In this document: positions 1,091 through 60,220 of the stretch, one piece after another
How positions within the stretch are numbered: the first letter of the stretch is position 1
Layout: every line of letters starts with the position of its first letter
Source: an uncultured Dehalococcoidaceae bacterium
GTDB taxonomy: Bacteria; Chloroflexota; Dehalococcoidia; Dehalococcoidales; RBG-16-60-22
NCBI GenBank assembly: GCA_964545815.1
Contig: CAZJGR010000002.1
Location: forward strand, 1-60,759
Direction of reading: 5' to 3'
DNA: 60,759 bases
Made by a program: the position numbers and the translations under genes
The notes under the pieces: generated by a model
What the model saw: only the letters and a program-made list of their open reading frames with translations
What the model was told of the DNA's origin: nothing
The model's database searches: none

Positions 1091-1954
1091 CTACAGCAAC
1101 CTCACGGCCTCGGCCAGTTCAGAATCTACGACGTGGGTGTACAATTGAGTGGTGCTCAGGGAGTTGTGCCCAAGAAGGACCTGTACCACCCTGATGTTAG
1201 CTCCCCGTTGGAGTAGGCGGGTGGCAAAGGTATGCCTGAGCATGTGTGGAGAGAGCTTAAACCCGGCCTGTTCGCCCGCCTTTTGGACGACGTGCCCCAC
1301 GGCCCGCCTTTTCAGGCCGCCTCCCTGATACCCCTTTAGCAAAGGCTGATCGCCGTCCTTATAGGGGACGGATTGAAGGTAGAACAGGAGGGCCTCCTGT
1401 AAGGTGTCCTTGATAGGAACGGTCCGCTCCTTGTTCCCCTTGCCTCTGACTCGAATCTGCCCGCTCTCGAGGTCCAGAGAGCTTCTCTTCAGTCCCACGA
1501 CCTCGGACAGTCTGAGACCGGCAAAAAGCATGAGGTAGATGATCACCCTGTCGCGCCTCGACAGGGTGGCCCCGATCAGAGCCAGGACCTCCGACCCGGT
1601 CAGGACTCGGGGCAAGCGATACTGCGCCCCCCCTCTCCCGAGGGAAATCCCCTCCATCGGCGAGGATGCCATCCATCCATTGACTACAGCCCAAGAGTAG
1701 AAAGCCCTCAAAGCGGCCACGATCCGCCAAAGGCTGGCCTGCGCCAACCGTTGACCCTGGGATGTAATGAATTCCTCTATGTGCCGCGGCGTGGCCATCA
1801 GAAGCTCGCTGTGAGGCTCAGAGAAGATACGTGGCCGGACTCCCCTACTCGCCAGGAACCGCCAAAACCGCGTGACCTCGTAGAGATATGCCTTGACGGT
1901 TTGCGGACTATAGCGGGCCTTTAGATACAAACTCCATGCCTGTAGAGTTGGCAT
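1091..1954 (-). CDS. int: tyrosine recombinase / phage integrase (XerC/D-like)
   Basis: C-terminal HMLRHTFATRLL...LLGHNSLSTTQLYTHV (R..HxxR..Y catalytic signature). Start trimmed to ATG 1954 (MPTLQAW) behind GGAAAGGAGG. Confidence 0.93.
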   Translation of the reverse strand: MPTLQAWSLYLKARYSPQTVKAYLYEVTRFWRFLASRGVRPRIFSEPHSELLMATPRHIEEFITSQGQRLAQASLWRIVAALRAFYSWAVVNGWMASSPMEGISLGRGGAQYRLPRVLTGSEVLALIGATLSRRDRVIIYLMLFAGLRLSEVVGLKRSSLDLESGQIRVRGKGNKERTVPIKDTLQEALLFYLQSVPYKDGDQPLLKGYQGGGLKRRAVGHVVQKAGEQAGFKLSPHMLRHTFATRLLQRGANIRVVQVLLGHNSLSTTQLYTHVVDSELAEAVRLL

Positions 1955-2123
1955 CTTGAGTGACCTCCTTTCCACTGATTCTCCTATTCAGGTAACATGC
2001 GACGTGAGCCACCCCCTGGCCAGGGCGGGGGAACTGAACGTACCCGCTGCCCTTATAACACCCCTCCCCACAATAGATGCAGTTTCCCACGTGGGTGCCC
2101 TTGCCTTTGTTTTCATCGGCCAT
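1908..2123 (-). CDS. small Cys-rich protein (71 aa), possible Zn-binding recombination directionality factor / excisionase-like partner of the integrase
   Basis: ATG 2123 behind CCAGGAGG. CIYCGEGC...HVAC motif. Overlaps the integrase start by 47 nt. The function is a guess from position only. Confidence 0.45.
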   Translation of the reverse strand: MADENKGKGTHVGNCIYCGEGCYKGSGYVQFPRPGQGVAHVACYLNRRISGKEVTQDANSTGMEFVSKGPL

Positions 2124-4269: not shown

Positions 4270-4312
4270 TGCGTTAAATACCAATTTAACGCATTTCAAG
4301 ACGATGCTTGAA
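4270..4312. promoter_or_regulatory. two operator-like palindromes upstream of gene 3917..4243
   Basis: TGCGTTAAA (4270-4278)-6 nt-TTTAACGCA (4285-4293), and TTCAAG (4295-4300)-6 nt-CTTGAA (4307-4312). Both lie in the only A+T-rich patch of this intergenic region. Confidence 0.5.
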
Positions 4313-4848: not shown

Positions 4849-5113
4849 CTTCACTGTCTCCTTTCGTCCGCACCCAACCCGCCTCGGCCACCGCCCCCAT
4901 CGCCGAACCCGGGGGAGCAATAAGCCGCTGTATCTGCCGCGCCACATCCTCGGCGATCTGAGCCGTAGAGCCTGTATTACCAGGATGCCGTATAGCGAGT
5001 TGGATATTAGACATCACGACCCAGGCCTGTACCGGAGTTAGAGAAAGTATTACCCGCTCGTCGCCTTGCTGGAGAAGTCCAAGTTCTATCAATGCCCTGT
5101 CTTGCTCATCCAT
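4814..5113 (-). CDS. hypothetical protein (99 aa)
   Basis: ATG 5113. Overlaps the end of the exonuclease gene. Lys-rich tail. Confidence 0.55.
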   Translation of the reverse strand: MDEQDRALIELGLLQQGDERVILSLTPVQAWVVMSNIQLAIRHPGNTGSTAQIAEDVARQIQRLIAPPGSAMGAVAEAGWVRTKGDSEDARRPKKKKGR

Positions 5114-5831
5114 CGGATAACCACCCTGTGAACCGAGACCTCTCCCAGGGATTTTTGATCCAGTGGGGAGGGACAGGCTCCGGTAAGACCATAGCCTCGG
5201 CGACCGTTAAAAGCCCATCGAGGGACTGAACGTGATCCGCTCCACGCCGGTCCTGCCACCATATATAATGTCTCCCCTTGTCGCTTCCCCCCAAAGATAG
5301 AATCTTGTCGAACACAGCCCCGGTCACCCGCACGTCCTGGCTGACGTATTCGAGGACTTTGTCGTATTCTCCCGCCTCCCACAGTACCGGGGCCTGTGCG
5401 CCGCCCATCCCCGCCGTCTTGCCAGGGATGCCAAAGCCATGGGCAACGGCCTCGAGGCCAACTGCAAAACCATGTTCACAAAAGAACTGAAACATCGGGT
5501 CTATGGACCTCAGTGCCAGTGCTCTACACTCCGCCCACAGGCCCGACTCCTCGGCCAACACCCTGAAGTCGAACGAAAGGCCATTCCAGGTAACGATGGT
5601 ATACCCATCGCCCGTCATCCGCTCCAGGTATGCCACCAGGACCTGCACTTGAGATTGTGGCATAGACTGCCAGGGCTTGCCATCGGGAGCGCCTACCCCG
5701 TACCACAACCTGACCTCCCCGTCACAGGGAAGGGTGGCCGCTACCGAAATGCCAAAAGGACGATAAGCCTCCCAGTCCGCCCCCTCGGGTATAGTGGCCG
5801 CAATCTCTAAGTCAAACGCTAACCAGCGCAT
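5106..5831 (-). CDS. DEDD-type 3'-5' exonuclease (DnaQ/PolB-exo-like)
   Basis: FDLE (Exo I), WNGLSFDFRVL (Exo II), YVSQDV (Exo III). Trimmed to ATG 5831 behind TAAGGAGG. Confidence 0.8.
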   Translation of the reverse strand: MRWLAFDLEIAATIPEGADWEAYRPFGISVAATLPCDGEVRLWYGVGAPDGKPWQSMPQSQVQVLVAYLERMTGDGYTIVTWNGLSFDFRVLAEESGLWAECRALALRSIDPMFQFFCEHGFAVGLEAVAHGFGIPGKTAGMGGAQAPVLWEAGEYDKVLEYVSQDVRVTGAVFDKILSLGGSDKGRHYIWWQDRRGADHVQSLDGLLTVAEAMVLPEPVPPHWIKNPWERSRFTGWLSDG

Positions 5832-5857
5832 TTTGTAAACCTCCTTAATTGTAGATT

Positions 5858-6190
5858 TTACTGGCCGTCCCAACTATCACGAATCCGCTTGACCACCTCC
5901 TCTCGTATGCCGTGAATAGCAAAAGCCTCCGCCAGCCGTTGGACTGGCGGGCAGGAGCCGTCCAGGATGATCGCTTTGAACCAGACCTGATCGGAGATAC
6001 ACAAGAGCGACTGCACCTCCCACTGCCGGTGCCTCATCGCAATTAACACCTGCGCCTGCGCCTCGTTCTCGGCCAGTACCACGACCTGGAGGCATATTAA
6101 GGCCCCACGGCGCGGCTCAAAACTGGTCAAGACGGCGACATATAGATGGAGAGGGGTAATCTGTCTCTCGATAAGGATGTTATTCACCAT
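5858..6190 (-). CDS. hypothetical protein (110 aa)
   Basis: Trimmed to ATG 6190 (MVNNILIE) behind GGAAGGGGG. Confidence 0.55.
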   Translation of the reverse strand: MVNNILIERQITPLHLYVAVLTSFEPRRGALICLQVVVLAENEAQAQVLIAMRHRQWEVQSLLCISDQVWFKAIILDGSCPPVQRLAEAFAIHGIREEVVKRIRDSWDGQ

Positions 6191-6779
6191 GCCATACCCC
6201 CTTCCGCCGTCCATGCGAAGCGGACCCCAGGACATAGACCTTTAACTCCGGCTTGTATACCTGGAGTACGCCTCCCCGTTGAGGATGCGGCCGGGCATGG
6301 ATATAAGCCTGCTTGACCAGGTAACAAATGTGCGCCTCGGTTAGCTCGGTCAACCGCACTGCCTCCCGAACCGTGATCCAATTCGGGTCCTGGACCATAG
6401 CCTCCCTGACCAGCGTCTCGTGGGTTGGCATCAATACCACTACCTCCCGCAGAAGACCCTCAAGACGACGCCTGCGAACCGCGCCTCGCAACTTCCGCAA
6501 GGCCGCCGCCTCAATCTGCCGTACCCGTTCCCGAGTGATCCCCAGGAGAAGCCCGCACTCGTGAAGGGTCAGTCCATCCCCGAACCGGTAGATGACAACC
6601 AGGGCGTGCTTACTAGGCAAGCCCCTCACCCCTTCCAAAAGACACCCCTGGAGGGCGTCACTCCAACCCTGTTGTTCTCCGGCCCATGTGGCCTGTTGAT
6701 TGCCGGGGACGAACCCGCCGTGCGCCAACCGATAGACCAGCGCCGGGTTACGGACCGCGTTCATAATGCTGCTGCTCAT
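6180..6779 (-). CDS. sigma-70 region-4-only protein fused to an excisionase/MerR-type HTH
   Basis: LVVIYRFGDGLTLHECGLLLGITRERVRQIEAAALRKLR closely matches sigma region 4.1-4.2. No region 2/3 is visible. C-terminal WITVREAVRLTELTEAHICYLVKQ looks like an HTH_17-type helix-turn-helix. ATG behind AAAGGAG. Confidence 0.8.
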   Translation of the reverse strand: MSSSIMNAVRNPALVYRLAHGGFVPGNQQATWAGEQQGWSDALQGCLLEGVRGLPSKHALVVIYRFGDGLTLHECGLLLGITRERVRQIEAAALRKLRGAVRRRRLEGLLREVVVLMPTHETLVREAMVQDPNWITVREAVRLTELTEAHICYLVKQAYIHARPHPQRGGVLQVYKPELKVYVLGSASHGRRKGVWHGE

Positions 6780-6830
6780 CTTTTGTACTCCTTTCTTAAC
6801 CTAATTTAATTTGAGTGCCCACTGAGGCTT

Positions 6831-6860
6831 GCCCTGGACTTACCTTGATAAGTCCAGGGC
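6831..6860. repeat. outer-arm hairpin GCCCTGGACTTA-ccttga-TAAGTCCAGGGC
   Basis: Exact 12-bp arms. Confidence 0.9.
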
Positions 6861-6901
6861 AAAGTCAGAGGGTACTACACGGCAGACCTGCCTAGAGACA
6901 G

Positions 6902-6920
6902 GCCTACCTAACAGGTAGGC
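6902..6920. repeat. inner palindrome GCCTACCT-AAC-AGGTAGGC
   Basis: Exact 8-bp arms. Contains the stop codon of gene 6904..7470. Confidence 0.9.
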
Positions 6921-7470
6921 AGGCAGGGAGCCAGAAGACCGGCCCCCAACGCTTGAGAGACTTGACCTTGCTGAAAAACAGGTCGGCGGGTATCATCGCT
7001 GCGGACATACTCCTCTCTGGCAGCAGACCATAAACCGTCTGCCACGAGGCCGAGAAGCCGACCAGCCATTGATGGTTACAGAGAACGGCGAGGTCGTCCA
7101 TGGTGTAGTTAGGGATTTTGACTTTGACCGTCTCTGCCAGCTCGCAGAACGGCTTCAGAAGCCCATCCCAATCTAGCCGGGAGCGGGCAGACAAAGACCG
7201 CAGCCATTTACTAAGGGCACAACGCTGGTCCTCCGCATACTCCACACCGAGAATCCACCCCTTACCTTGATGCCATTCACCTACCAGCGGATGGATGGTA
7301 ACGCTCCTGGCTATGATAGCGTGATTGACCGTGGCGATGACATCACCGGAGCCGCCCACGCCCACGACTATCCCATTGGCCAGTCGTCGGCTTATACCAT
7401 AGTCTCGCCGTTCGTACCAGAGAGTGTCACCTGTGACGATGACCCCATTGACTGTTAGCTCTTGGGGCAT
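6904..7470 (-). CDS. hypothetical protein (188 aa)
   Basis: ATG 7470 behind AAAGGAGG. The C-terminus ...PACLPVR-stop is encoded by the palindromic element. Confidence 0.65.
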   Translation of the reverse strand: MPQELTVNGVIVTGDTLWYERRDYGISRRLANGIVVGVGGSGDVIATVNHAIIARSVTIHPLVGEWHQGKGWILGVEYAEDQRCALSKWLRSLSARSRLDWDGLLKPFCELAETVKVKIPNYTMDDLAVLCNHQWLVGFSASWQTVYGLLPERSMSAAMIPADLFFSKVKSLKRWGPVFWLPACLPVR

Positions 7471-8589: not shown

Positions 8590-8740
8590 TCGGCCCAGTC
8601 ACCCCGCCCCCTTGGTGGCTGTGAGTGGCACAACCTCGCCACCCTTCCGCCACCACCCATGTCCCATAACCCCTCCGGGCCTGCCTACCCGGCCGGTAGG
8701 CCGGTTTCCGAATCCGATTCGCGGGCTATACGAAGTCCCA

Positions 8741-23219: not shown

Positions 23220-23243
23220 CTGAATTTATCATGATAAGTCCAG
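23220..23243. repeat. 24-bp element CTGAATTTATCATGATAAGTCCAG (core palindrome TTATCATGATAA)
   Basis: Exact reverse complement of 56930-56953. Ends 5 nt before the -35 of the late promoter. Confidence 0.9.
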
Positions 23244-25784: not shown

Positions 25785-26096
25785 ATGGACCTGAGTATTG
25801 GAGGCATCCCTATCATGGCCGTCATCGTAGGCCTGATTGAGTACCTCAAGAAAGACATTGGAGTGCCGGCCGCACTTTGCCCTGCCTTGAGCATGATCAT
25901 GGGGGTATGCGCAGGCATTGGAAACGAGTTCTTGAAGGCCTGGCCGGTTACCCCTGACTTGCCCGCGCTGATCACCGGCGCAATCGTTGGCCTGGCCCTG
26001 GGTATGGCTGCCACCGGACTTTACAAGGTGGCTATGAAGGTATCAGGTAACGGGAGCCGCCCTGCTTTACAAGGTGGCTATGAAGGTATCAGGTAA
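25785..26096 (+). CDS. holin-like small membrane protein
   Basis: 2-3 TM segments. GLALGMAATGLYKV. The 3' end lies in a 46-bp tandem duplication. Confidence 0.6.
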   Translation: MDLSIGGIPIMAVIVGLIEYLKKDIGVPAALCPALSMIMGVCAGIGNEFLKAWPVTPDLPALITGAIVGLALGMAATGLYKVAMKVSGNGSRPALQGGYEGIR

Positions 26097-26111
26097 CGGG
26101 AGCCGCCCTGC
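26020..26111. repeat. perfect 46-bp tandem duplication
   Basis: 26020-26065 is identical to 26066-26111 (TTTACAAGGTGGCTATGAAGGTATCAGGTAACGGGAGCCGCCCTGC). Confidence 0.95.
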
Positions 26112-26133: not shown

Positions 26134-26781
26134 ATGGCACAATCCGACTCGGCTATACTAGCCACCCCTGCCAGCCCGAATGGGGTAACGACCCTCGGCC
26201 CGTCAAAGAGCAACGGTAACGGCAACCTGAAAGCTCCACCGCCGCAGGAGGTACACGGAGTCATTCTCTACCACTCCGACCCCGCCATCGATGACCGTAT
26301 AAGAGAGGTCCGGTCGCTGCGGGAGGAATACGGCTTTGACGTGTCCTATATCGCTCAGGCCGTTAGAGTGTCGCGCGCCCAGGCGTTTGCCTACCTGAAA
26401 CAAATCAGGCTGGCCCGCAAAGCGTATATGGCCGCGTTTCCCGAAGACTTTATCTCCGGCATGGAAGCGATGGTTACAGCCATCGAACAACGGCGGGAAA
26501 TGGACACCATGCTGCGGCGGGAACTTGGCAAGTCCTCCGGCGATAACAATCCGTCAAACCGAGTCGGATTGTACAAACTGATCATGAGAAACATGCGGGA
26601 GTTGGAGGAACTCTGCGGCCTTTTGGTTAACCGCATTGAGCACGGCGGGGAAATCGCTATAAATGACATGAAGACCGCCCTGGACCAGGCTCCCGCCCCA
26701 CTACGGGAGGCCTACCTTGACGCTCTCGCAGCTGTGGTTCATGCAACAGCACCAGCAGCTAACCAGGGACCAGGCAGTTGA
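26134..26781 (+). CDS. terS: putative terminase small subunit
   Basis: Position directly upstream of and overlapping TerL. HTH-like GFDVSYIAQAVRVSRAQAFAYLKQ plus a helical C-terminal half. Confidence 0.55.
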   Translation: MAQSDSAILATPASPNGVTTLGPSKSNGNGNLKAPPPQEVHGVILYHSDPAIDDRIREVRSLREEYGFDVSYIAQAVRVSRAQAFAYLKQIRLARKAYMAAFPEDFISGMEAMVTAIEQRREMDTMLRRELGKSSGDNNPSNRVGLYKLIMRNMRELEELCGLLVNRIEHGGEIAINDMKTALDQAPAPLREAYLDALAAVVHATAPAANQGPGS

Positions 26782-28474
26782 CCTGCTGGCTTATTACGGC
26801 CATTCGCGCCCGGTAAGCTTACTGGCCTGGGCCCTGACCTATCGCGCCCTGGACGGCCACCCCTTCACCCTGGATAAATACCCGTCCAGTGTAGCACTTT
26901 ACAAAGACGAAGCCCCCTTTATCGTCGTAGAGAAACCTAACCAGGTAGGAATTTCAGAGTGGCTTATCAATACCGCCCTCCATGCGCTGGATATGGGGGC
27001 GGGCTATTTCGGGATTGAACACCTGAAAAAAAGCCTGAACGTAGGCTACATTTTTCCTACCTGGATAGCCCTGCGGGATTTTTCCAAAGACCGCGTCCGA
27101 AGAATCGCTCTGGAAACCGGGTATCTGTCCGCCCTCTTGGCGCCGGTGCGAAAGGCCGGCTCCCTGCGACGGGAAAGCGACCTGGGGCTGTACTTCATAC
27201 GAGCAAGCGCACTTTACCTGCGAGGCGCGCACCGGCCCGATGAACAATTGGCCTCCTTTCCCGTAGACATCCTCCTGGTGGACGAGTACGACCTGATCAC
27301 TCTGCGGGCCATCGCCCTGGCCGAGAAGAGGTTGAGGGCCTCCCCCCTCCGGCTGAAACGATACATCTCCAAGCCGACCTTGCCTAATATGGGGGTTGAT
27401 AAACTCTACCAGGAGAGCGACCAGCACCAATGGGAAATCCGGTGTCCCACCTGCGGGGACTGGCAACCGCCCGATTTTTGGGACAACGTGTTCCTGGTGG
27501 ATAGGGGGAAAAAGCTACCTTATGCAGAGTGGTCGAAACGGGACCGCAACGACCTCCTGCAAAGCTGTTTTGAGTTTGCCTGCCGCCGTTGCCAGACGCC
27601 CCTGCACCATATCAGTCCTGGCCGCTGGCAACCCCAAAACCAGGGAGCGCCGATCAGGGGCTATCGTATCCCTGGCCTGGTCAGCCCTTACGTTCCTTTA
27701 ATAGAGATAGTTAAGGGCAGCCTGGCCGAGGAGCCGGACATCCTCCTGGAATGGTACAGAGCTGACCTGGGCCTGCCCAAAGCCCCGGAGGGCGGGCAGC
27801 TAAAGTGGGACGATCTCCAGGCTTGCCAATCCGCCGACTGCCACCTGCAGCAGAGAGCCCACCGTTGCACCATGGGTGTAGACATCGGAGTCAATCTCCA
27901 TGTCCGCGTGAGTTCGTACCAAAAGGGAACCTGGCAAACCGTCTGGATAGGAGAGGTAGACGAGTTCGAGCAGCTAGACGAACTCATGACCCGCTATGAA
28001 GTCCGGGCCGCGGTCATCGATGCCCTACCCGAAACCCGGTCGAGTAGAAATTTTTGCCTGCGCTGGCCGGGACGAGCCTGGATGGCCTACTACTCTGACA
28101 CCCAAAAAGAGGTCTATGTCTGGAAAGACCCGCCAGAGGGAGAACGACACAGAGAGGCGGGCAAGGTGCTAATCACCCGCACCGAGGCGATGGACCGCGT
28201 GGCCGCCAACCACCGGGAGGGGAAGGACGTCCTCCCGCTTGAGGCCCATGCCGTCCCAGGGTTTTTCAGACACCTGTGCGCGCCGGTGCGCGTAATGACC
28301 ACCAGAACCAAAACGGATGGAACCCACTACAGTGTAGCCGTCTACCTGGAGAGCGGACCGGACCACTACTATCATGCCAGCGTTTACGAGCTGGCGGCCA
28401 GGGAGCGACTCAAGCCGGCATTGCTGAACCTGACGGCCGGCATAACCACTGAGCAATCCGCCTTTGAGGTCTGA
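26717..28474 (+). CDS. terL: terminase large subunit (lambda GpA-like)
   Basis: EKPNQVGISE (Walker A-like), ILLVDEYD (Walker B), CPTCG...CRRCQ Zn-finger as in the GpA family. TTG 26717 behind GGGAGG (alternative ATG 26741). Confidence 0.8.
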   Translation: MTLSQLWFMQQHQQLTRDQAVDLLAYYGHSRPVSLLAWALTYRALDGHPFTLDKYPSSVALYKDEAPFIVVEKPNQVGISEWLINTALHALDMGAGYFGIEHLKKSLNVGYIFPTWIALRDFSKDRVRRIALETGYLSALLAPVRKAGSLRRESDLGLYFIRASALYLRGAHRPDEQLASFPVDILLVDEYDLITLRAIALAEKRLRASPLRLKRYISKPTLPNMGVDKLYQESDQHQWEIRCPTCGDWQPPDFWDNVFLVDRGKKLPYAEWSKRDRNDLLQSCFEFACRRCQTPLHHISPGRWQPQNQGAPIRGYRIPGLVSPYVPLIEIVKGSLAEEPDILLEWYRADLGLPKAPEGGQLKWDDLQACQSADCHLQQRAHRCTMGVDIGVNLHVRVSSYQKGTWQTVWIGEVDEFEQLDELMTRYEVRAAVIDALPETRSSRNFCLRWPGRAWMAYYSDTQKEVYVWKDPPEGERHREAGKVLITRTEAMDRVAANHREGKDVLPLEAHAVPGFFRHLCAPVRVMTTRTKTDGTHYSVAVYLESGPDHYYHASVYELAARERLKPALLNLTAGITTEQSAFEV

Positions 28475-56929: not shown

Positions 56930-56953
56930 CTGGACTTATCATGATAAATTCAG
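56930..56953. repeat. 24-bp element CTGGACTTATCATGATAAATTCAG
   Basis: Reverse complement of 23220-23243. Ends 11 nt before the -35 of the next promoter. Confidence 0.9.
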
Positions 56954-57028: not shown

Positions 57029-57349
57029 ATGCACGATCCCATAAAGCTCATGCAGGGCCGCTCAAAGCCCATCAACGTGAGCCTGACCACTAACTTGGAA
57101 CAGGCTCTGCGAGCGCAATCCCGCAAAGAGAACCGGCCTATCTCCCGCATTGTCCGCCTGGCCGTTCTCCACTACCTGATCGCCCGGGACCGGCCGCCCA
57201 GGGAGGAACTCCATGACCACGGCGAGGAGTGTGAATACCAGGAACACGACGGCACTTTCTGTGCATGGGCCTGGGAGTCCTGCAACGGCCCGACCGATGG
57301 GTGCGGTTTTTTTCCAAGACGTCCCCGAAAGACCGTAGATGAGAATTAA
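57029..57349 (+). CDS. ribbon-helix-helix protein
   Basis: PINVSLTTNLEQALRAQSRKENRPISRIVRLAVLHYL. Confidence 0.7.
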   Translation: MHDPIKLMQGRSKPINVSLTTNLEQALRAQSRKENRPISRIVRLAVLHYLIARDRPPREELHDHGEECEYQEHDGTFCAWAWESCNGPTDGCGFFPRRPRKTVDEN

Positions 57350-58277
57350 ACCCCTAGCCCGCCCTGGTTACACCATGATGTCCAATTTCACGTTGGACTA
57401 TATCATGCCTCACCTATCCCCCAACGGATGGAAGGTCCTCTGTGTAGCCATTCGGCGTACCATAGGCTGGGTGCACCCTGACGACCCTACCCGCCGCAAA
57501 GAACGGGACCGTATCTCCCTCAGCCAGTTTATGGCCGGGACGGGAATTGCCTCGAAGGAAACAGTACTCCGCGCTCTACGAGAGTGCCTGGGCGAAAACA
57601 GTGAGCACCTTGAATATCTATGCCGCCTGCCGGCGCCCGATCACGCCCAGGCATTTTTATATTACCTCAATACGGAATTGGAGATTGAGGTGCCAGAAAC
57701 CGGTACGGAAATTGTACCCGTTAAGGGAACCGGTACGGAAATTGTACCGGTTGACGAAAAAACCGGTACGGAAATTGTACCGGTTGACGAAAAAACCGGT
57801 ACGGAAACTGTACACACAAAAGAAAAGGGGGATAAAGAAACAGGGGATAAAGAAACAGGGGCCGATCCGCTTCTTTTTGAGCTTGAGAGGGCAACCCTGA
57901 CAGCTCAGGAATCCGAAGGGAACTGGGCTGACCCCGAAACCAACAGCCTGGCCGATAACCTGGTGAAATTGTACTGCGCCCTACAAGGCCAGGCAGAACC
58001 GAAAGGAAACACCAGGCGCACCTGGCGTCTGGCCCTCGGGGAAATCCTCAAGGCCTGGGGCCTGTCCCAGGATGGGGAAACGGCAGCTGCAGCCTTGCGA
58101 ATTCTCCTCGATCCGGAGGGGGAGTTCACCTATCAACGCCGGACCTACCACCCCCTCAAGCCCGGTTTCCAGGGGGACCTGGCCACCGTCATCGGCCGCC
58201 TCCTGGCCGGAGGGACGGGTTATCTGGATGCCCAGGATGAACCGGCCGATATGCCCGGTATTCAATTTGAGCATTAG
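57339..58277 (+). CDS. replication initiator, lambda O-like N-terminal domain
   Basis: YTMMSNFTLDYIMPHLSPNGWKVLCVAIRRTIGW...DRISLSQFMAGTGIASKETVLRALREC. Iterons lie inside the gene. Confidence 0.8.
   Translation: MRIKPLARPGYTMMSNFTLDYIMPHLSPNGWKVLCVAIRRTIGWVHPDDPTRRKERDRISLSQFMAGTGIASKETVLRALRECLGENSEHLEYLCRLPAPDHAQAFLYYLNTELEIEVPETGTEIVPVKGTGTEIVPVDEKTGTEIVPVDEKTGTETVHTKEKGDKETGDKETGADPLLFELERATLTAQESEGNWADPETNSLADNLVKLYCALQGQAEPKGNTRRTWRLALGEILKAWGLSQDGETAAAALRILLDPEGEFTYQRRTYHPLKPGFQGDLATVIGRLLAGGTGYLDAQDEPADMPGIQFEH
57699..57857. promoter_or_regulatory. candidate origin of replication: 4 iterons plus an A-rich tandem 15-mer tract
   Basis: ACCGGTACGGAAATTGTACC at 57699, 57729 and 57762, with a variant at 57795. 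Each contains GGTAC-N7-GTACC. GGGGATAAAGAAACA x2 at 57828-57857. Confidence 0.7.
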
Positions 58278-59838: not shown

Positions 59839-60156
59839 ATGCCGATTAAGGACCCTGACCTTTACCCGCCCGACTGGTGGCGAATCAGCCTGCAGGAGCG
59901 TGTGAACAGCGGCTGGCGCTGCCGGTTTTGCAGGGCCGAACAGGGAGAACCGCACCCGGTCACCGGCTCCAGAGTAGTCCTGACCGTGGCTCACCTGGAC
60001 CACAACCCGCAAAACAACGACCCGGACAACCTGGCGGCTTTGTGCCAAAAGTGTCATCTGGCCTACGATCAGCAGGAACACCTACACCACGCCGCTCAGA
60101 CCAGGCGAAGAAGGAAAGTGGAAGCCGGGCAACTAGAGCTATTAGAGGCCCCATAG
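59839..60156 (+). CDS. HNH endonuclease (phage packaging-associated type)
   Basis: CRFC...VLTVAHLDHNPQNNDPDNLAALCQKCHLAYD. Trimmed to ATG 59839. Confidence 0.85.
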   Translation: MPIKDPDLYPPDWWRISLQERVNSGWRCRFCRAEQGEPHPVTGSRVVLTVAHLDHNPQNNDPDNLAALCQKCHLAYDQQEHLHHAAQTRRRRKVEAGQLELLEAP

Positions 60157-60220
60157 CTCAAATGGGAGAGCAACGGTCTCCAAAACCGTGAGGTGAGGGT
60201 TCGAGGCCCTCTGTGGGCCG
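60147..60220 (+). tRNA. tRNA-Trp (anticodon CCA)
   Basis: Manual fold gives: D arm GCTC/GAGC; anticodon arm ACGGT-CTCCAAA-ACCGT; variable loop GAGGT; T arm GAGGG-TTCGAGG-CCCTC; G discriminator. The acceptor stem GGCCCCA/TG(T)GGGCC needs one bulged base. Overall close to bacterial tRNA-Trp. Confidence 0.7.

Follow-up and report, generated by a model that had tools for sequence, protein, structure and literature searches.

What can a phage protein do with region 4 of a sigma-70 factor when it carries no other sigma region? This question is raised by P0001, a 199-aa protein encoded in the window analysed here, which spans 60,759 bp and is the entire contig C2 of a 1.64-Mb metagenome-assembled genome. 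The window looks like a complete temperate siphovirus and contains, besides a 2203-aa ORF of tape-measure size, the following landmarks:

1091-1975, minus strand: tyrosine integrase
26717-28474, plus strand: large terminase
57339-58277: O-like replication initiator
60147-60219: tRNA-Trp (CCA)

The nearest tRNA-like matches to the tRNA-Trp elsewhere in the assembly reach ~80% identity at most, and this tRNA was therefore assigned to the phage itself and not to a host attachment site. At 26019-26110 a 46-bp sequence is duplicated exactly and in tandem (two copies of CTTTACAAGGTGGCTATGAAGGTATCAGGTAACGGGAGCCGCCCTG). The duplication covers the 3' end of a small ORF (25785-26096) that resembles a membrane protein, and it lies close in front of the ORF before the large terminase.

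The gene of P0001 lies in the other arm of the phage and is preceded by a clear ribosome-binding site (RBS):

6180..6779, minus strand: gene of the sigma-4/HTH_17 protein P0001, 199 aa, with its stop codon at 6180-6182 (ORF list, translation)
6788..6794, minus strand: RBS AAAGGAG, 8 nt 5' of the ATG (from the sequence)

Relatives of the gene carry AAAGGAG or AGGAGT at the corresponding position. Upstream of the ATG the reading frame offers 7 more open codons at most (206 aa), and P0001 thus has no concealed N-terminal part. An identical copy of the protein is encoded on 3 assembled contigs.

The preliminary description of this DNA had recognised a sigma region 4 in P0001, and this assignment was confirmed by database searches, which placed the domain as follows:

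6441..6671, minus strand: sigma-70 region 4 domain (4.1, 4.2 and a tail-like helix), residues 37-113 (Pfam, PDB, Foldseek and host SigA)
6486-6623, minus strand: Pfam Sigma70_r4 core, residues 53-98

The Sigma70_r4 family (PF04545) matched residues 53-98 with an E-value of 6.9e-15 and a score of 54.7 bits, above the gathering cut-off of 24.1 bits. Comparison with PDB sequences by phmmer aligned residues 41-110 with regions 4.1 and 4.2 and the C-terminal tail of RpoD/SigA, RpoS region 4 also being among the matches, while the NCBIfam sigma models matched P0001 with their C-terminal ends alone (residues about 34-113). The host's own primary sigma factor SigA, a 509-aa protein encoded on contig C86, is 54% identical to P0001 over residues 61-110, and the recognition helices of the two proteins, TRERVRQIEAAALRKLR in P0001 and TRERIRQIEAKALRKLR in SigA, differ at 2 of 17 positions. 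Foldseek searches with a structure model of P0001 returned 1ku7_A, which is Taq SigA region 4 on -35 DNA (rmsd 1.7 Å, 44% identity), and 4g6d_A (rmsd 1.8 Å, 47% identity). The region 4 of P0001 is a genuine one of the primary sigma type. With the group 1/2 sigma-70 factors (RpoD/SigA and RpoS; 1KU7, 4G6D and 1TLH) it has in common the Pfam domain, both subregions 4.1 and 4.2 and the -35-contact residues, at 44-47% identity and 1.7-1.8 Å rmsd over about 60 residues. Unlike these factors, P0001 is devoid of regions 1.2-3 and has a remodelled C-terminal tail; its region 4 has 36 aa of N-terminal sequence on one side and another DNA-binding domain on the other.

That regions 2 and 3 are absent had likewise been claimed from the letters alone, and the claim held, Sigma70_r4 being the sole Pfam match in P0001 at E<=10. 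A cryptic region 2, which had been named as the refuting result, was sought by Pfam, NCBIfam, a scan of the contig and Foldseek, and was not found. Specifically, Sigma70_r2 (PF04542) gave no Pfam match in P0001 at E<=10 and none on the phage contig at E<=1, in a scan that did register Sigma70_r2 on host contigs C86 and C22. The Foldseek alignments against PDB and BFVD were confined to the region 4 part of the model and included no full-length analogue. Only ~36 aa precede region 4. Having no region 2 or 3, P0001 is left without the region 2 route to core polymerase or to the reading of a -10 element.

An exhaustive phmmer search of 1.84 billion cluster representatives returned about 22 full-length relatives of P0001 (174-237 aa), most of which match it from about residue 7 to residue 199, with E-values down to 5e-25. 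A word-indexed protein search found few members, and the family set used here rests on the exhaustive search. The resulting alignment of 23 sequences (A1) has an overall identity of about 33% (29-40%) and contains a Sigma70_r4 match in 20 sequences; R87, R95, R98, W134, T144 and W196 are invariant, and all 23 proteins are strongly basic (pI 8.7-11.5). The isolate phage records held no DNA or protein relative of P0001, scans of IMG/VR gave region 4-level matches and no full-length relative, and a full-length relative was likewise absent from 400 other genomes of the host phylum. Searches of the accessible literature turned up no account of a sigma-4 domain combined with HTH_17. Neither component domain is novel, and phage annotations often include Sigma70_r4 proteins that lack region 2; the fusion of the two domains is a new domain architecture, and it defines a coherent, small and unannotated phage family without structural analogue. 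During these searches we also came across three metagenomic proteins (P0180, P0205 and P0214) that join the RNA polymerase alpha C-terminal domain (PF03118) to Sigma70_r4, with no region 2, and are another polymerase-part chimera. BFVD also contains small proteins of phages, labelled as alpha subunit, that resemble the P0001 model.

Alignment A1 was also used as input for AlphaFold, giving the model employed throughout, in which the protein is predicted with confidence as one unit (pLDDT 93.5, pTM 0.73), a single-sequence run of P0001 having reached a pLDDT of 35.7. In this model the sigma-4 domain is made of four helices (residues 37-113), and the remainder of the protein divides into four parts:

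6672..6779, minus strand: family-specific N-terminal segment, residues 1-36 (alignment A1; AlphaFold helices 2-9 and 12-20, strand 28-32)
6381..6440, minus strand: linker, residues 114-133, with a strand and the conserved PxPGGPxDPxW (A1; AlphaFold strand 114-118, helix 120-129)
6225..6380, minus strand: excisionase/MerR-type winged HTH (HTH_17-like), residues 134-185 (PF12728 matches in the family, model topology)
6183..6224, minus strand: basic tail GRRKGxW(K/R)G, residues 186-199, containing the invariant W196 (alignments A1 and A2)

The N-terminal segment has the motif NPxL...G...GExLxW, of which W32 is nearly invariant in A1, and gave no family match in Pfam. More can be said of the C-terminal half, in which a second, MerR/Xis-like HTH had been proposed. 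This domain is real at the level of the family, HTH_17 (PF12728) matching 19 of the 23 aligned sequences with a best E-value of 2.1e-7, although P0001 alone falls below detection (no match at E<=10, nor at E<=1 in the genome scan). The model supports it as well: a beta strand at 134-136, helices at 137-144 and 148-156, strands at 162-164 and 172-175 and a helix at 176-184 form the beta-alpha-alpha-beta-beta-alpha topology of the excisionase/MerR type. A profile of the domain gave chance matches only against PDB (E>0.2). The topology is common to HTH_17 proteins such as Tn916 Xis, TorI, AlpA and BldC-like proteins; unlike in these excisionase/MerR-type proteins, the domain of P0001 stands behind a sigma-4 domain, is not encoded beside int and is followed by the GRRKGxW tail. 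Free-standing homologues of the winged helix, ~75 aa long and ending in an AT-hook-like KRGRKPK tail, occur in about 10 genomes from a different family, f29, within the same phylum (L048 1480-1707, with similar loci in L043-L051 and L053).

Two features set P0001 apart from its relatives. A 6-residue insertion in the linker (residues 120-125, 6405-6422) is found in P0001 alone, and residue 152 in the recognition helix of the HTH_17 domain (6324-6326) is Cys in P0001 and Arg in 22 of the 23 sequences. As judged from the alignment, P0001 is an atypical member of the sigma-4/HTH_17 family.

Whether the region 4 of this family is kept for reading DNA or for docking on RNA polymerase was addressed by mapping the family to E. 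coli sigma-70 numbering via the PDB alignments. The counts below refer to the 23 sequences of A1:

R584 equivalent, -35 contact: Arg in 18, Lys in 5
E585 equivalent, -35 contact: 21/23
R586 equivalent, -35 contact: 20/23
R588 equivalent, -35 contact: 23/23
Q589 equivalent, -35 contact: 19/23
K593 equivalent, -35 contact: Lys or Arg in 17/23
R562 equivalent, -35 contact: 18/23
R541 equivalent, flap contact: Gln in 10, Lys in 3, other residues in the rest
L607 equivalent, flap contact: Leu in 3/23

As the -35 contacts are kept despite an overall identity of only ~33%, these positions are under purifying selection, although contacts between proteins could also explain the conservation of the recognition helix. 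[quoted passage not shown] The H-P break past the recognition helix is also lost in the family, the helix continuing to residue 103 in the model. Invariant, on the other side, are the equivalents of R596 and R599, two residues at which regulators contact sigma-70. Of the two activities that the preliminary description had considered, competition for -35 elements agrees with the R584, E585, R586, R588 and Q589 equivalents kept in 18-23 of the 23 sequences and with the basic pI, whereas docking on the beta-flap finds no support, as R541 and L607 are not conserved and a pure decoy would have no need of a second DNA-binding domain.

The genomic position of the gene was then compared among five independent phage contigs that carry an integrase, four being 61-67 kb long within an overall range of 33-67 kb, namely the window, L005, L008, L054 and L056, in all of which the sigma-4 gene occupies the same slot. 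The shared order runs from DUF1257, DUF2997, an AAA+ ATPase and DUF3150, through further genes, to RusA and, further on, to an ORF of ~190 aa, a gap with a hairpin and the sigma-4 gene, and continues with a PolB-exo-like exonuclease and, after other genes, the tyrosine integrase. The L008 locus begins within the contig, downstream of the place that the first cassette has in the other phages, and shows small ORFs after the sigma-4 gene instead of the exonuclease, which follows directly in the other 3 of the 4 syntenic relatives (L005, L054 and L056). The immediate neighbours in the window are:

5106..5873, minus strand: PolB-exonuclease-like gene (RNase H fold), downstream of the sigma-4 gene (Pfam DNA_pol_B_exo2, 9.7e-10)
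6829..6862: perfect hairpin/palindrome with arms TTGCCCTGGACTTA and a loop of 6, within the 124-nt gap between ORF188 and the sigma-4 gene
6904..7470, minus strand: conserved neighbour ORF188, 188 aa, immediately upstream in all five phages

ORF188 gave no match in Pfam, PHROG or PDB; its homologues are 31-34% identical and share 29 invariant columns that include several Trp and Gly (alignment A7). The hairpin at 6829-6862 (RNA fold z = -5.1) is one copy of a family of intergenic palindromes dispersed over the phage, and in each of the 4 syntenic relatives the gap ahead of the sigma-4 gene (78-118 nt) likewise contains a long hairpin. The gene thereby lies in the early/recombination operon, always past the intergenic gap and upstream of the distal segment that contains the integrase, and this conserved slot in five phages makes it a core, delayed-early gene of the phage lineage.

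If P0001 reads promoter DNA, its sites may be sought among the phage's own control regions. It had been stated earlier that four phage promoters have strong -35 boxes, and four near-consensus host-type promoters were indeed located, each scoring 11/12 and each with a perfect TTGACA:

23176, minus strand: promoter
23249, plus strand: promoter
54177, minus strand: promoter
56965, plus strand: promoter

Three of the four also have an extended -10 TG. A flanking motif common to all four was not found, apart from a separate 24-bp imperfect palindrome, CTGGACTTATCATGATAAATTCAG, which is present in the window at 23220-23243 and 56930-56953 in opposite orientations. The first copy lies between the divergent promoters 23176(-) and 23249(+), and the second 11 nt upstream of the -35 box of promoter 56965(+); going by this placement, the palindrome is likely to serve the main control regions of the phage as a common operator. 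The dispersed CTGGACTTA palindromes were considered as a target of P0001 because their arm resembles TTGACA at 4/6 positions, and were set aside, as nothing observed ties them to the protein and they look more like intergenic RNA hairpins.

When the five syntenic loci were compared by k-mers, one conserved non-coding element emerged besides the hairpin repeats and RBSs, an AT-rich palindrome of the form TGCGTTAAAT-N4-ATTTAACGCA that we regard as a candidate target:

4270..4293: palindrome in the window
L005 12781-12802: palindrome in relative
L008 about 8706-8729: palindrome in relative
L054 12993-13014: palindrome in relative
L056 13000-13021: palindrome in relative

It is single-copy in the window and occurs once per locus in the relatives, where none would be expected by chance, and it is almost invariant (26 invariant columns with unconserved flanks in alignment A6) though the proteins of the five phages are only about 30-35% identical. 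The palindrome is situated 2-3 kb downstream of the sigma-4 gene. About 25 nt (20-35 nt across the five phages) separate it from the opening gene of the distal segment, the one with the integrase, and in the window and L054 a non-coding stretch of 330-360 nt with GC-rich short repeats precedes it. Its conservation and position make it a probable operator or promoter element and the strongest candidate for a site bound by a conserved DNA-binding protein of the phage. Its connection with P0001 is a guess, and is weakened by the fact that the palindrome is unchanged in the window, the phage whose protein has Cys at residue 152.

We propose that P0001 is not a sigma factor but a transcription regulator of its temperate phage that binds specific DNA sequences with two heads, both within one compact protein, a reading that we hold at about even confidence. 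The conservation of the DNA contacts, the loss of the flap contacts, the basicity of the family and the presence of a second DNA-binding domain favour DNA binding by P0001 in its own right over docking on the polymerase. The free-standing homologues with an AT-hook-like tail, the slot shared by five phages and the single-copy palindrome at the head of the distal segment also speak for the proposal. The first head is a genuine sigma-70 region 4 captured from a primary-type sigma factor, with the residues for a -35-type hexamer (TTGACA-like) retained; the second, which would probably read adjacent AT-rich DNA, is a winged helix of the excisionase/MerR type that ends in a basic tail. Against the proposal, an isolated sigma region 4 binds DNA only weakly. 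The long leftward operon would supply the protein in the delayed-early phase, and it would bind promoter-proximal DNA alone, not as a part of RNA polymerase. Its regulatory sign could then be either of two: it may block host SigA at -35 boxes, or it may turn on the distal, integrase-carrying part of the operon. DNA binding, the target sites and the direction of regulation are what we infer here; they would build on the domain make-up, the family, the slot and the contact residues observed above.

Polymerase-directed readings were weighed against this proposal. As a decoy or appropriator, the region 4 of P0001 would replace that of SigA on the beta-flap tip or titrate factors that bind region 4, with the outcome that -35-dependent host promoters are shut down or that the polymerase is retargeted via the HTH_17 domain, in analogy to T4 AsiA with MotA. 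The region is of the primary sigma type and includes 4.1, which is part of the flap-binding surface, the equivalents of R596 and R599 are invariant, and the extended -10 TG in 3 of the 4 strong phage promoters would tolerate the loss of region 4. This reading is nevertheless unlikely, since the positions of R541 and L607 are not conserved, the H-P helix break has given way to a helix reaching residue 103, the DNA-reading residues are conserved though a decoy has no need of them, and a free region 4 would have no region 2 to anchor it on core. A sigma-4 swap, in which the region 4 of P0001 replaces that of SigA on the beta-flap or the -35 element while the HTH anchors the complex to phage DNA, is disfavoured and appears somewhat less probable still. 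Least credible among the alternatives is that P0001 is one half of a split sigma factor in the manner of B. subtilis SigO-RsoA, with a partner that would bind core in the manner of region 2 and recognise the -10 element. A possible partner would be ORF188, which is paired with the sigma-4 gene in all five phages; against this reading, the contig has no Sigma70_r2 signal at E<=1, Pfam, PHROGs and PDB gave no sigma-like match to ORF188, and the phage promoters are of ordinary host-type consensus. SigO-RsoA itself reportedly places region 4 on a polypeptide without region 2; unlike in that system, the phage contig shows no sign of a partner with region 2.

The remaining readings leave the polymerase aside. 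P0001 could act as an excisionase, that is a recombination directionality factor (RDF), perhaps also with a regulatory role like that of P2 Cox, its HTH_17 domain bending attP/attR for the integrase. The fold is of the excisionase type, no other HTH_17-like domain is detectable on the phage contig, and the integrase belongs to the same operon in all five phages. Excisionases are, however, typically proteins of 60-120 aa; an RDF would be looked for as a small protein encoded beside int, whereas P0001 has 199 aa including a sigma-4 domain, its gene is 4-9 kb from int in the five phages rather than adjoining it, and repeated sites were not seen near int. We consequently give little credence to an excisionase. 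A role as an accessory DNA binder in replication or recombination, acting at an origin or recombination site rather than as a transcription factor, would suit the neighbouring genes for RusA, the PolB-exo-like exonuclease and another exonuclease-like protein, but seems improbable given that the intact -35-reading residues of the region 4 head point to promoter DNA and that the O-like replication initiator is encoded elsewhere (57339-58277). We also considered a small terminase subunit and rejected it, the sigma-4 gene being about 20 kb from the terminase and in the other arm.

Phages have several devices at the interface of region 4, the beta-flap and the -35 element, such as T4 AsiA with MotA and the flap-binding co-activator T4 gp33. 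These T4 proteins bind region 4 or the flap and are not themselves region 4 homologues, and P0001 has no sequence or fold similarity to them. Regarded as a DNA-binding regulator, P0001 may have a functional analogy to activators of the lambda CII type, as an early phage protein that would bind at the -35 region ahead of int; the two are not homologous, and the analogy is purely inferential.

Small 'Sigma70_r4 domain' proteins abound in phage metagenomes, and to our knowledge none has a known role. The sigma-4/HTH_17 family offers a clean case, in which a primary-sigma region 4 with intact -35 residues is fixed to a second DNA-binding domain and encoded by a core gene in a lineage of uncultured temperate phages. 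If P0001 docks on the polymerase, it would represent a new kind of sigma appropriation, and were the sigma-4 swap true, one polypeptide would do the work of T4 AsiA and MotA, a new form of host-polymerase reprogramming with a stolen piece of sigma. If instead P0001 binds -35-like DNA alone, these phages would be recycling the promoter-reading module of their host as a free transcription factor.
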